DNA from: an uncultured cyanobacterium
Lineage (GTDB): Bacteria > Cyanobacteriota > Cyanobacteriia > Cyanobacteriales > CAWUOF01
Reading direction: 5' to 3'
NCBI GenBank assembly: GCA_963744145.1
Contig: CAVUSO010000001.1
Coordinates: 5,664,001-5,728,000, forward strand
DNA length: 64,000 nucleotides
The notes beneath the pieces are model-generated. The model made no database searches, was not told the origin of the DNA, and saw nothing but the letters and a program-made list of their open reading frames with translations. Below, piece after piece: positions 53,171 to 63,848 of this stretch; within the stretch, counting starts at the first letter, position 1, and each line of letters starts with the position of its first letter. The position numbers and the translations under genes were made by a program.

Positions 53171-53995
53171 ATGATCACGACTGATAACTTGAAAATAGGA
53201 CTTTATGCTACGGGAGGCATGATCTTAATCCTGACTGCAATTATTTTCAAACCATTCGTAATTGTTAATGCGGGGGAACGGGGCGTTATTATGCGCTTTG
53301 GTAAAGTTGAGAATCAAGTCTTAGATGAAGGAATTCATCCGATTATTCCCATCGTTACTTCGGTAAAAACCCTGAGTGTCCGTGTCCAAAAAACTGATAT
53401 TAAAGGAGAAGCAGCTTCTAAAGATTTACAACAAATCACCGCAGAGTTAGTTCTGAATTGGCATATTGATCCGAGCCAAGCTAATAAAGTTTACCAAACA
53501 ATTGGTGATGAGGAACAAATTATTAACGGAATTATCTCTCCCGCGATTATAGAAGTGCTAAAAGCATCAATGGCCAAAAAAACTGCGGAAGAGATTATTA
53601 CTAAAAGAACTGAGTTAAAAGATGAAATTGATGATTTTCTCAAAAACCGTCTGAAAAATTATGGGCTGATAGTTGATGATGTATCTTTAGTTAACTTTGC
53701 TTTTTCTCCAGAATTTACCAAAGCGATCGAAGCGAAACAAATTGCGGAACAACAAGCCAAACAAGCAGAGTTTACAGCCCTAAAAGCTGCTAAAGATGCC
53801 CAAGCTACAATTAATACGGCTAAAGGTCAAGCCGAAGCCCAAAAATTGCAACGTTTGACTTTAACTTCAGAACTATTGCAACAGCAAGCAATAGAAAAAT
53901 GGGATGGTAAGTTTCCGATGGTGATGGGTAGTAATGGTGCGTTACCATTTATTAATATTAATCCTGATAATTTATCGTCATCACCAAAACAGTGA
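53171..53995 (+). CDS. Prohibitin/SPFH domain protein
   Basis: VNAGERGV, ASKDLQ, AIEAKQIAEQ, AIEKWDG. Confidence 0.92.
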   Translation: MITTDNLKIGLYATGGMILILTAIIFKPFVIVNAGERGVIMRFGKVENQVLDEGIHPIIPIVTSVKTLSVRVQKTDIKGEAASKDLQQITAELVLNWHIDPSQANKVYQTIGDEEQIINGIISPAIIEVLKASMAKKTAEEIITKRTELKDEIDDFLKNRLKNYGLIVDDVSLVNFAFSPEFTKAIEAKQIAEQQAKQAEFTALKAAKDAQATINTAKGQAEAQKLQRLTLTSELLQQQAIEKWDGKFPMVMGSNGALPFININPDNLSSSPKQ

Positions 53996-54051
53996 TGCCC
54001 CTGAAAAAACAGGTTTGCAGTTTACCTTAAGTAAAAAGAGATTAAATACCA

Positions 54052-54873
54052 ATGAAATTTGCCAATACACTGAATAAATCGCTTAGTATTTTTGCCATAG
54101 TAATTGTGGGGTTTTTACTGTTAGCAATCCTGTTTAATCCTTTTGTGATTGTCAATGCTGGGGAAAGAGGTGTCGTGATGAATTTTGGCAAAGTTTCTGA
54201 TCTAGTTTTAGATGAGGGACTACATCCAATCATTCCGATCGTCACAACGGTGAAAAAAATTAACGTCCGGGTTAAAAAAAATGATATCCTCGCTCAAGCA
54301 GCTTCTAAGGATTTGCAACAGATTCAAACTGATGTCGCAGTTAACTGGCACATCAATCCTTTGCAGGTCAATATGGTTTTTCAAAGGGTTGGAGATAGCG
54401 AGCAAATTGTGAATGGAATTATGACTCCAGCAGTTTCCGAAATTGTGAAAGCATCTGTCGCGAAGAAAACAGCTGAAGAAATTGTGACTAAAAGAACCGA
54501 TTTGAAAGCAGAAATAGATGATACTTTAAAGACTCGGTTGAATTCCTACGGGATTTTAGTTGATGATGTGTCTTTAGTTGATGTCACTTTTTCCATCGAG
54601 TTCAGTAAAGCGATCGAAGCTAAACAAATTGCTGAACAAGAAGCAAAACGAGCTGAGTTTGTAGCTTTAAAAGCCGAACAAGAAGCACAAGCAGATGTTA
54701 ATCGTGCTAAAGGTCAAGCTGAAGCCCAATTATTATTACGAGCTAACTTAACATCAGAAATTCTGCAAAAACAAGCGATCGATAAGTGGGATGGTCATTT
54801 TCCAATGGTAATGGGAGGTAATGGAGCTTTACCGTTTATTAATCTTCAACCCAACCAGGATTTAATCAAATAA
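54052..54873 (+). CDS. Prohibitin/SPFH domain protein (tandem paralog)
   Basis: Same motifs as the upstream gene. Confidence 0.92.
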   Translation: MKFANTLNKSLSIFAIVIVGFLLLAILFNPFVIVNAGERGVVMNFGKVSDLVLDEGLHPIIPIVTTVKKINVRVKKNDILAQAASKDLQQIQTDVAVNWHINPLQVNMVFQRVGDSEQIVNGIMTPAVSEIVKASVAKKTAEEIVTKRTDLKAEIDDTLKTRLNSYGILVDDVSLVDVTFSIEFSKAIEAKQIAEQEAKRAEFVALKAEQEAQADVNRAKGQAEAQLLLRANLTSEILQKQAIDKWDGHFPMVMGGNGALPFINLQPNQDLIK

Positions 54874-61006: not shown

Positions 61007-61151
61007 CCCCGCACAAGTTGACAAAGCTTTTGCACTGGCGAGTTACCGTTACTCTACAGACCCTTTTTGAGGTGGATCTGGTAGGAGTCGAACCTACAAT
61101 TCCCGCTGTTCAAGCGGATTGTGTGTAAGCTTTATCTGTCAGGGTGCGGGG
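61007..61151 (-). ncRNA. YrlA-like Y RNA candidate (permuted tRNA-like module in a terminal stem)
   Basis: CCCCGCAC/GTGCGGGG ends pair; inside: hairpin, T arm GTAGG-TTCGACT-CCTAC, acceptor CAGATCC-loop-GGGTCTG, D arm GAGT-AACGGTA-ACTC. Confidence 0.7.
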
Positions 61152-61165
61152 AAAAATTATTACCT

Positions 61166-61289
61166 TAGACCTCTTGCAAAAGTCATGTTGATCAATTTAC
61201 TGGACAGGCAAGATGCCTGTCCCACAACCAAAAAAAACTCTTGTGGGACAGGCATCTTGCCTGTCCTAGTTATTTTTGCAAGAAGTCTA
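61166..61289. repeat. MITE/REP-like element inserted in the tRNA operon
   Basis: Same family as 14073-14196. Confidence 0.85.
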
Positions 61290-61556: not shown

Positions 61557-61565
61557 AAACCAAGA

Positions 61566-61639
61566 CGGGAATGGTAGGAATTGAACCCACAACATCCGAG
61601 GTAGAAACTCGGCGCTCTATCCGATTGAGCTACATTCCC
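61566..61639 (-). tRNA. tRNA-Arg(TCT)
   Basis: CCGAG-TT TCT AC-CTCGG; full cloverleaf. Confidence 0.9.
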
Positions 61640-61665
61640 ATCAACAATTGTGAAAATTTTTCAGT

Positions 61666-61910
61666 TCAGGCGATCGCGTAAGGGCGTGCAAGTTAGCAGA
61701 GCATTTTGCGTTTTCTCAGCTACTAGAGGGACTCCGCCGATGAGTTATTACACACTCTTTCAAGGATGGCTACTTCTAAGCCTACCTATCGGGTTCTTTG
61801 TACTCCCCATTGGCAAACGCGACCCGATATTTGATAGGGTTACTATTCCTCTCGTACTTAGTATGTAAGCTCTATCCTATTAGGGCACGCTGAGGACGCG
61901 ATCGCACTGA
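61666..61910 (-). ncRNA. Structured RNA with a sarcin-ricin loop and a 23S rRNA H43/H44 (L11-binding) mimic
   Basis: Ends pair; AGTACGAGAGGAA at 61846-61858; 56-nt GTPase-centre-like domain at 61737-61792. Confidence 0.75.
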
Positions 61911-61967
61911 TTACCAAACATGATCAAACGAATTTAACACACCTCCTTAAATCAAATTCAATTCACA

Positions 61968-62039
<72 letters not shown>

Positions 62040-62139: not shown

Positions 62140-62985
62140 TTATTTATCTGGCCGAAATCGCCGATCGAACTCTGTAAATATCTTTCTTTCTTCGCTTAGA
62201 TCCAGAACTGAAAATAGGATGCTTTTGAATCTTCCCCAAAACTGTCCTTTTGTTAATAAAAAATCCGCAAACATTTGAGCGACCATTGCCGGATCGTTTC
62301 TGAATACTCCACATCCCCAAGCTCCTAAAACTAAAGCATCACAATGATGGTAAGCAGCTAAACTTAACAACTTAGCACCGCGAACATAGAGAACTTCGCG
62401 AATTTTTCCTTGAGCCGGAGATGGTCTTTTTCTAATTTCACCAGCGTTAGGAGCTGGACTAGTGAAAAAATCCACTTGATGGGGGATTGACAGTAAAGTT
62501 CCATCATCTTTGCGAAAAATTGGACAACTTGGTGAATGAATAATATGATCGGAATATAAAAGTGAGGAAGTAGACCGATGAAAATCATAATATTTAGGAC
62601 ATTTCAATAGACTTTGGTAAAGTCCAGAACTACGTGCTAAACTCTCTTCTTGTGCTTGAGCACCTCTCATAAATCCACCACCAGGGTTTTTAGCAGAAGC
62701 AAAATTGAGAACACCAATTTTGGCAAATTTTTGAGTTTTCGTCATCATTTCTGCTCCGCTCAATGTCGTCTCATTCCTGATGGTAAATTCAGTATTAGTG
62801 AAGGTGGCAGCACTAGCGAGAACTTCGGTTTGGATTTGCTCAAGATCAGCAGGATCGTAACATTTTGTTTGAGCGACACAGAATGCTAAATCTGGCGCTA
62901 TATCCACCCGTTCGCTTTGAGGGGATTGGTAATAACCTGCTGCTAGTATATTGAGAGTATCTTGCGCGATCGCAACTCGCTTCAT
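62140..62985 (-). CDS. TIGR02452 family (DUF2263, PARG-like macrodomain) protein
   Basis: VLNFASAKNPGGGF..GAQAQEESL, LVLGAWGCGVF; start moved to MKRVAI after the AGGAG RBS because the longer ORF overlaps tRNA-Thr. Confidence 0.88.
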   Translation of the reverse strand: MKRVAIAQDTLNILAAGYYQSPQSERVDIAPDLAFCVAQTKCYDPADLEQIQTEVLASAATFTNTEFTIRNETTLSGAEMMTKTQKFAKIGVLNFASAKNPGGGFMRGAQAQEESLARSSGLYQSLLKCPKYYDFHRSTSSLLYSDHIIHSPSCPIFRKDDGTLLSIPHQVDFFTSPAPNAGEIRKRPSPAQGKIREVLYVRGAKLLSLAAYHHCDALVLGAWGCGVFRNDPAMVAQMFADFLLTKGQFWGRFKSILFSVLDLSEERKIFTEFDRRFRPDK

Positions 62986-63027
62986 GTGTTTAAAACTCCT
63001 GATACATATCTCCTTTTTTAAAGTCCA

Positions 63028-63099
63028 AGCAGGAGGCGAGATTTGAACTCGCATAGGCAGTTTACAAGACTGCTGTGTTGCCATTGACACCACACCTGC
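63028..63099 (-). tRNA. tRNA-Thr(TGT)
   Basis: GCAGT-CT TGT AA-ACTGC. Confidence 0.85.
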
Positions 63100-63819: not shown

Positions 63820-63848
63820 ATACTACAATCATACTACAAAATTGTCAA
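63820..63848 (-). promoter_or_regulatory. Sigma70-type promoter of the tRNA operon with overlapping TGTAGTAT direct repeats
   Basis: TTGACA-17 bp-TAGTAT; two TGTAGTAT copies 11 bp apart. Confidence 0.8.

Follow-up and report, generated by a model that had tools for sequence, protein, structure and literature searches.

In the genome of an uncultured cyanobacterium, a segment of about 245 nt on the minus strand, flanked by tRNA-Val(UAC) and tRNA-Arg(UCU) inside a tRNA array, resembles two parts of 23S rRNA. This raises the question whether the segment is a stray piece of rRNA or an RNA gene in its own right and, in the latter case, what such an RNA might do. The locus was analysed within a window of 64,000 nt, i.e. 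the whole stretch of DNA considered here, and the segment is referred to as the SRL-GAC RNA after its sarcin-ricin loop (SRL) and its GAC (L11-binding) domain. Its parts and the neighbouring features are listed in Table 1.

Table 1. Features of the SRL-GAC RNA and of the surrounding tRNA array (window coordinates)
Feature	Position	Strand	Basis
Promoter of the array (-35/-10), its -10 box covered by two TGTAGTAT direct repeats as a TrcR-type operator	63820-63848	-	
TIGR02452 / microbial-type PARG gene, inside the array	62140-63093	-	
tRNA-Val(UAC), upstream neighbour	61968-62039	-	tRNA calls
Optional outer stem, 5' arm, HIP1 palindrome	61896-61910	-	
Conserved core of the SRL-GAC RNA, ~207 nt	61684-61890	-	covariance-model match, alignments, pair counts
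Shared scaffold, 5' strand: terminal helix, CCYRAY loop strand, GAGC helix, invariant UACA	61864-61890	-	
Sarcin-ricin loop hairpin, H95 mimic	61841-61863	-	
Variable hairpin, H96 position relative to the SRL	61823-61839	-	named from the order of parts
Connector helix (61809-61820 with 61708-61714) bearing H42-H44, H97 position	61708-61820	-	suggested by topology
H42 lower stem with Kt-42-type kink-turn (61793-61808 with 61727-61736)	61727-61808	-	
GAC / L11-binding domain mimic, 23S 1052-1107	61737-61792	-	
Shared scaffold, 3' strand: GCUC helix, RACUU loop strand, terminal helix	61684-61702	-	
Optional outer stem, 3' arm, HIP1 palindrome	61666-61679	-	
tRNA-Arg(UCU), downstream neighbour	61564-61640	-	tRNA calls
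Sibling RNA, scaffold with YrlA-like permuted tRNA module (T-arm, closed acceptor, D-arm)	61007-61151	-	

Both rRNA-like parts named in the original prediction are present: the SRL hairpin lies where it was placed, and the GAC mimic aligns without gaps to E. coli 23S 1052-1107, with 42/56 identical positions. The unit of ~245 nt with paired ends stands in part. Its outer stem exists in the window, but what is conserved is a core of ~207 nt. The arms of this stem are HIP1 palindromes, of which the source genome has 7,811 copies. Among the matches listed, 26 of the 62 copies in arrays are flanked by such arms on both sides, against none of 37 stand-alone copies. The 245-mer has a folding z-score of -3.59, with 0/200 shuffles equally stable, and the covariance model, in whose training set the window copy was included, matches it at 61682-61892 with 209 bits. 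A Shine-Dalgarno-like GGAGG lies upstream at 61941-61948 (-), where there is no evident ORF; GGAGG is found within 95 nt upstream of 56/62 array copies and 0/37 stand-alone copies (among the matches listed).

A narrow Rfam scan matched LSU_rRNA_bacteria (RF02541) to exactly 61737-61792, at 45.6 bits and thus below the gathering score of 50, while a wider scan did not report this match. Only the GAC part is recognised as LSU, and the Rfam scans of the element yielded no full-length family. The source genome has three 23S genes, all elsewhere, and the SRL 12-mer occurs four times, namely in those three and in the SRL-GAC RNA, which is a single copy outside the three rrn operons. A 23S gene or a recent fragment would be colinear, near-identical and in rrn context; here, identity to the genome's own 23S is 43/56 (77% over 56 nt), the order is reversed and the location is outside rrn. 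The SRL-GAC RNA resembles H42-H44 and H95 of 23S (RF02541) in the 56-nt gap-free GAC, the SRL loop, the kink-turn and the tertiary triple. It differs from 23S in its reversed order, in the removal of ~1.5 kb, in new joining helices giving a total of 207 nt, in a U.U-A triple and in a relaxed H43 loop. The change of U1058-A1080 to G-C, previously taken as specific to the mimic, is not so, as the organism's own 23S also has G1058-C1080.

In the ribosome, H97 of 23S contacts H42 (PMC2952862). The succession of SRL, hairpin and connector stem with H42-H44 would, topologically, recall the domain VI order H95, H96, H97. Sequence homology of the connector to H97 is not established, H97-like loop words being found in only 7-8/111 copies among the matches listed. 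At the position of SRL 2666, 108/112 copies (among the matches listed) have A instead of C.

Searching with blastn and then with the covariance model retrieved 22 full-length copies in 18/61 related genomes. A pattern scan of species genomes gave at least 121 stretches, of which two are chance and one a duplicate; the others are homologues, nearly all labelled cyanobacteria. The chance matches, on Thermoplasmata and Clostridia contigs, were dropped before counting, as was the duplicate locus L110. Outside this group, a divergent copy sits in the tRNA array of an Obscuribacterales MAG, a Vampirovibrionia-side class sample contained a full copy in 1/141 genomes, and metagenomes gave four matches, including three divergent GC-rich SRL-GAC copies. 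One contig labelled Actinomycetota (L131/G062) carries a cyanobacterial-type array, the RNA and a Ro-like gene (see below), scoring within the 73-75% range of cyanobacterial scores, and is probably a mislabelled or mixed bin. Among Paenibacillus plasmid matches, the single one checked is a whole 23S gene. The SRL-GAC RNA is a conserved RNA gene, ~207 nt long, of many cyanobacteria. Of 135 distinct copies among the matches listed, 62 lie in tRNA arrays, 37 are stand-alone, three have one tRNA nearby and 33 have flanks too short to tell.

In viral contigs, the SRL-then-GAC pattern matched once, inside a coding region and by chance, and blastn of the SRL-GAC core against phages found GAC-half matches only. 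Phages carry a separate family of GAC mimics (e.g. pf16 L156:2990-3185, L157, L158 and L160; viral loci L166-L233), in which H43 and H44 are split by an insert of ~45-330 nt between 1090 and 1091 and which have neither SRL nor scaffold. The 68 viral GAC matches comprise 52 split ones (40 with tRNAs in the locus), 13 whose closing strand was not found and three contiguous rRNA-like ones; a Rfam scan of these mimics gave partial LSU matches and no other family.

Covariation was examined in 41 sequences, taken from 44 representatives (<90% identity) of 139 after exclusion of L016, L056 and L154. In a 50-pair structure, 91.5% of the cells are paired, versus 85.5% in shuffled and 31-50% in slid controls, and two-sided changes occur in 28/50 pairs versus 16.6 in the shuffled control, a comparison that flatters the structure because it was derived from the same related sequences. 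Two-sided changes are seen in 8/14 pairs of helices 1-2 (the long stem of the 5' and 3' ends), in all six pairs of the variable hairpin (helix 5) and in 3/5 pairs of the connector (helix 6); one H42 pair is unpaired in 37/41 sequences. A pairing of the invariant UAC with the SRL GUA, proposed by RNAalifold, was discarded because it shows no covariation and because siblings lacking an SRL keep UACA unchanged; on the same grounds, a pairing of UACA with 1092-1095 was discarded too.

Position counts in the GAC refer to 135 of 138 copies, those free of GAC indels, among the matches listed. Within this set, pair 1053-1106 is C-G in 71 and U-A in 63, pair 1058-1080 is G-C in 115 and A-U in 14, and the triple 1072/1092/1099 switches as a unit (U.U-A 122, C.C-G 8, mixed 5). 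In nearly all 135, 1059-1079, 1060/1088, 1062-1076 and 1082/1086 are kept, which we take to be L10/L11 determinants. The flanks said to resemble H42 carry a Kt-42-type kink-turn consensus in 89/111 copies (among the matches listed). The prediction that 1061 and 1067 are A is correct for the window copy and does not extend family-wide: among the same 135 listed copies, A stands at 1061 in 39, at 1067 in 113 (G or C in the other 22) and at 1068 in 86, and 1070 is G in 40. In 23S controls, by contrast, the A-G-A-A of the H43 loop is invariant (13/13). The search pattern fixed both the SRL core and 1086-1095, so that their invariance is in part built in; in copies found without the SRL pattern, the SRL is intact in 20/22, the other two being second copies.

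What the original prediction missed is that the terminal stem is a carrier tied to a Ro60-fold gene and that the RNA is often an independent gene. The scaffold, made of the terminal stem, a CCYRAY/RACUU loop and the invariant UACA, is common to several kinds of RNA. In the source genome its pattern occurs three times (strict) or four times (looser, one probably by chance), and not once in the reversed genome with either version. One of these RNAs ends the array that holds the SRL-GAC RNA (Table 1). The SRL-GAC covariance model finds it with 32.3 bits (E 1.2e-7), and it scores 23.6 bits (E 0.023) against Rfam YrlA, far below the gathering score of 69. Another precedes the Ro-like gene. The array also contains a long perfect inverted repeat (61195-61274) that separates tRNA-Ser from the YrlA-like sibling. 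Its only scores, all below cut-off, are with miRNA hairpin models; it is probably a small repeat element.

A catalogue of 270 scaffold RNAs, collected with a pattern in which the shared motif is built in, holds 112 SRL-GAC, 95 tRNA-like, 33 short (without cargo), six H69-like and 24 other RNAs. Among the tRNA-like ones, 32 are T-arm-first and the others have more than 20 different anticodon triplets; permuted siblings reach up to 46.6 bits against YrlA (cut-off 69). The six H69-region modules contain 21-28 nt with 85-96% identity to 23S. A model trained solely on SRL-GAC RNAs finds siblings in 16/61 genomes, mostly beside the Ro-like gene, which all 16 genomes have. The closing stem is a scaffold common to SRL-GAC, tRNA-like and H69-like RNAs.

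Several further observations concern the siblings. In a 595-kb phage, the Ro-like gene is preceded by several scaffold RNAs. In phage LR756511 (L247:16000-19300), a scaffold RNA cluster lies upstream of both a Ro-like gene and a 28-tRNA array; ARAGORN and Rfam score some of its scaffold RNAs as tRNAs, and scaffold RNAs elsewhere, e.g. L234:3397-3471, are probably misannotated as tRNAs. The H69-like RNAs (L049:679-864, L070:447-630, L264:5997-6183, L267, L268 and L279) resemble 23S H69-H70 plus base pieces of H67/H68, mostly circularly permuted; their core stretch falls on the I-CeuI site, a caveat for bare matches. Of 14 H69-core matches in viral contigs (L296-L309), two are 23S and 12 are not 23S and have no scaffold; several extend into hairpins like those of the H69 module. 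A ~124-nt two-hairpin cargo (~117-155 nt) recurs in L263, L267, L269, L271, L277, L279, L285 and L098, usually in the scaffold copy nearest the Ro-like gene, and blastn gave no rRNA or tRNA match for it.

The commonest neighbour of the SRL-GAC RNA is a 477-aa helical plus vWA protein, found at 36/140 loci, 41 of which have flanks of only 300 nt. A profile of this Ro-like protein (85 aligned) finds human Ro60 (E 1.7e-16), Rsr (3.7e-7) and also Ro60 of phage and Xenopus. Superposition of its structural model (pLDDT 89) on Ro60 and Rsr gives TM 0.60-0.71. Pfam vWA_Ro60 is detected in 19/85 members and TROVE in none at E 0.01. Profile and model together indicate a divergent Ro60 homologue, homologous over its full length, with a predicted helical-repeat ring and a vWA domain. 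The gene is present in 17/18 RNA-positive versus 7/43 RNA-negative genomes, for which a Fisher P of 1e-8 is an overstatement since kin genomes are not independent; a shared regulon or mobile island could account for part of this co-occurrence. In the RNA-positive exception (G049), the SRL-GAC copy has broken H42/H43 pairs, and the Obscuribacterales genome has both RNA and gene. The Ro-like gene lies upstream on the same strand in 27/30 stand-alone loci whose flanks reach 3 kb or more versus 4/35 array loci; for the window copy, the Ro-like gene is 2.6 Mb away. A Bacillota-side sample gave 2/301 for the Ro-like clade, a weak presence.

Other recurrent neighbours of the 140 loci are a 280-aa uncharacterised protein (27), ThiF (27), TIGR02452/PARG (17), NADAR (10), RNA ligase (8), AAA (7), Tpt1 (6) and macro (6); no ribosomal-protein genes were found among them. 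An operon-like run behind a double box (L234:3654-8654) encodes the Ro-like protein, Tpt1, an AAA ATPase, a 278-aa uncharacterised protein and ThiF. Elsewhere in the window, at 53171-54873 (+), two tandem ORFs look prohibitin/band-7-like by their translation.

The direct repeats over the -10 box of the array promoter follow the TrcR-type motif described for the Anabaena trn operon (PMC10272220, PMC8421152). Such boxes lie within 45 nt upstream of 29/37 stand-alone copies and 0/62 array copies among the matches listed, and of 1/37 controls, with a box pattern looser than the published 8-mer. Seven double boxes are found in the source genome, including those before the window array, the second tRNA array, rtcB and the Ro-like operon. 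The second array (nine genes) lies behind a similar double box (L235:1836-3135, G000:C1 ~7.373 Mb), and the L-array of this genome thus appears to be split in two; rtcB carries an intein (L237:6821-8680). According to PMC8421152 and PMC10272220, the cyanobacterial trn L-array and TrcR regulon have the same array type, the same kind of operator repeats and co-regulated rtcB and TIGR02452, the latter as alr1372 in the Anabaena TrcR regulon (PMC10272220). Taken together, the boxes support assignment of the SRL-GAC RNA to a TrcR-type translational-stress regulon. The main text of PMC8421152 contains none of the terms '23S', 'ncRNA', 'Y RNA' and 'TROVE', and the accessible text of PMC10272220 has neither '23S' nor mention of a rRNA-like or Y-like RNA.

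Y RNAs are modular, joining a Ro-binding stem as tether to an effector module (10.1101/312249, PMC4201824, PMC12135203). Compared with YrlA (RF02553) and Yrn1 with Rsr/Ro60, the SRL-GAC RNA is alike in its long 5'/3' terminal stem and exchangeable effector module. Bacterial Y RNA genes lie within 4 kb of a Ro60 orthologue on the same strand; a Ro60-fold gene is so placed at most stand-alone SRL-GAC loci (27/30), at few array loci (4/35) and not at the window copy. Further parallels with bacterial Y RNAs are the frequent presence of several RNAs per locus, an RNA-repair neighbourhood and T-arm/acceptor/D-arm siblings that score against YrlA. However, its effector mimics 23S rRNA whereas that of YrlA is tRNA-like, and its partner belongs to a divergent clade missed by the Pfam TROVE model, unlike the partners of known Y RNAs. 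The motif GNCGAAN0-1G near the 5' end of bacterial Y RNAs (PMC4201824) is absent from its scaffold, where the consensus is CCYRAY. Rfam scans gave no YrlA match over the SRL-GAC RNA, the tRNA-like module being confined to siblings, below gathering. Since tests for the GNCGAA motif and for the tRNA-like module found neither, it is not classed as YrlA or a Y RNA, although it plausibly works like one.

Ribosomal-protein leaders, e.g. the L10 leader, are cis elements before r-protein operons and mimic one rRNA site. With the L10 leader, the SRL-GAC RNA shares mimicry of the Kt-42 region; unlike such leaders, it is free-standing, comprises two sites and lies among tRNAs or beside a Ro-like gene. 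GOLLD and similar RNAs are large structured ncRNAs embedded in tRNA arrays. This embedding is shared, but the SRL-GAC RNA is much shorter and built from rRNA parts. Rfam gave no match over it to a r-protein leader or to GOLLD-type array ncRNAs. To our knowledge, the rRNA mimics described so far act in cis as single-site leaders, and the bacterial Y RNAs described so far imitate tRNA. Full-text literature searches, judged from listings and the openings of abstracts, showed no SRL-GAC RNA and no rRNA-mimicking Y RNA, in line with the earlier statement that no described family with such an architecture was known to its author. In the accessible text of PMC7824862, TROVE platforms are mentioned only with tRNA-like partners, and in that of PMC10690425 none of the viral candidates overlapped rRNA according to Barrnap. 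Ro60/RNA-repair reviews, surveys or supplements may already describe the Ro clade together with its tRNA-like RNAs. The rRNA-mimic cargo appears to be new, whereas the carrier is a variation on the known Y RNA kind.

As to function, nucleases target the SRL and H69-70, and the cargo set of the scaffold RNAs (tRNAs, SRL-GAC and the H69 region) matches the targets of ribotoxins. Tre23 ADP-ribosylates H44 (PMC8661411), and array tRNAs have been proposed as toxin sponges (PMC8421152). Because of this match, and because of the repair and ADP-ribose-removal neighbours, we tentatively favour a decoy or bait for rRNA-damaging enzymes, held by Ro within a translational-stress regulon, although we would put its chances at somewhat under even. 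The SRL-GAC RNA would then be one member of a modular, Y-RNA-like family, its constant terminal stem being the putative binding site of the divergent Ro60-fold protein and its cargo a miniature 50S factor-binding surface, with SRL and H42-H44 in a domain-VI-like order. Stress would lift TrcR repression, so that the RNA is released at the same time as RtcB, the accessory tRNAs and further repair genes. Held by Ro, it would serve as bait for enzymes that attack the SRL/GAC by cleavage or ADP-ribosylation, thereby sparing ribosomes, and its damaged ends would go to the co-encoded repair enzymes, while siblings might play the same role for tRNAs and the H69 region. Two features count against parts of this bait reading. 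The CCYRAY loop, which differs from the bacterial Y RNA motif, speaks against the Ro carrier. The kept kink-turn and L11-contact core, needless for a pure nuclease decoy, speak against the decoy and favour ribosomal-protein binding.

Such binding is the essence of the main rival reading, in which the mimic, held on the Ro ring, binds uL10-(bL12)n, uL11, perhaps uL6 or a translational GTPase, either storing and recycling stalk proteins from damaged 50S or bringing a factor to RNA-repair or decay complexes. Besides the kink-turn and the nearly invariant L10/L11 positions, the tethering role of Y RNAs (10.1101/312249) and the H97-H42 contact in 23S (PMC2952862) agree with it. On the other hand, the SRL is not an L10/L11 site, the recurrent neighbours include no r-protein gene, and the scaffold's tRNA bodies and H69-region piece would be left unexplained. 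We consider this reading rather unlikely, at about one chance in four.

A sensor is considerably less probable. Here the Ro-bound mimic would be a trip-wire whose cleavage or modification signals repair, dormancy or defence. Its anatomy would be identical to that of the bait, the Salmonella Rsr/RtcB operon is regulated by tRNA damage (PMC7790460), and the conserved uncharacterised operon partners (280-aa protein, ThiF and AAA ATPase) would suit signalling. Since it lies behind TrcR-type boxes, however, the RNA is probably made after stress begins, which is late for a primary sensor.

Slightly less probable still is a sponge for elongation factors or thiopeptide antibiotics, tuning the translation rate or giving tolerance. 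The SRL and H43/H44 form the site of elongation factors and thiostrepton (PMC8661411), and the SRL stays intact even in copies found without its pattern. Yet 1067, 1068 and 1070 vary, while they are invariant in 23S controls, which weakens both a thiopeptide decoy and an optimised elongation-factor sponge. Finally, a non-functional rRNA fragment, an assembly chimera or a chance likeness is refuted in substance, and the original view of a selected RNA upheld: some copies are decayed (L015, the second copies of L040 and L109, L278 and L286), but the 77% identity to the own 23S comes with compensatory changes and a kept kink-turn, and more than 130 copies occur in cyanobacterial lineages, one Obscuribacterales MAG and GC-rich metagenome contigs, with own promoter-like boxes.

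Returning to the favoured bait reading, it can be widened into a broader proposal, to which we give even odds. Cyanobacteria, other bacteria and huge phages may possess a whole library of RNAs built on a single Ro60-type stem, miniatures of vulnerable parts of the translation machinery (tRNAs, SRL-GAC, H69) that would act as decoys, baits or sensors coupled to repair and de-ADP-ribosylation, with the SRL-GAC RNA reproducing in its fold, apart from the ribosome, the 3D shape of the 50S factor-binding centre. If true, a trans-acting RNA that rebuilds a two-part ribosomal surface would mean that Y-RNA biology includes mimicry of rRNA as well as of tRNA, bacterial Ro60 proteins would gain a concrete role in ribosome defence or repair, and the TrcR stress regulon would gain a missing RNA component. 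The SRL-GAC RNA would also offer a natural 200-nt model in which the reading of SRL and GAC by factors, stalk proteins and ribotoxins can be studied without the ribosome.
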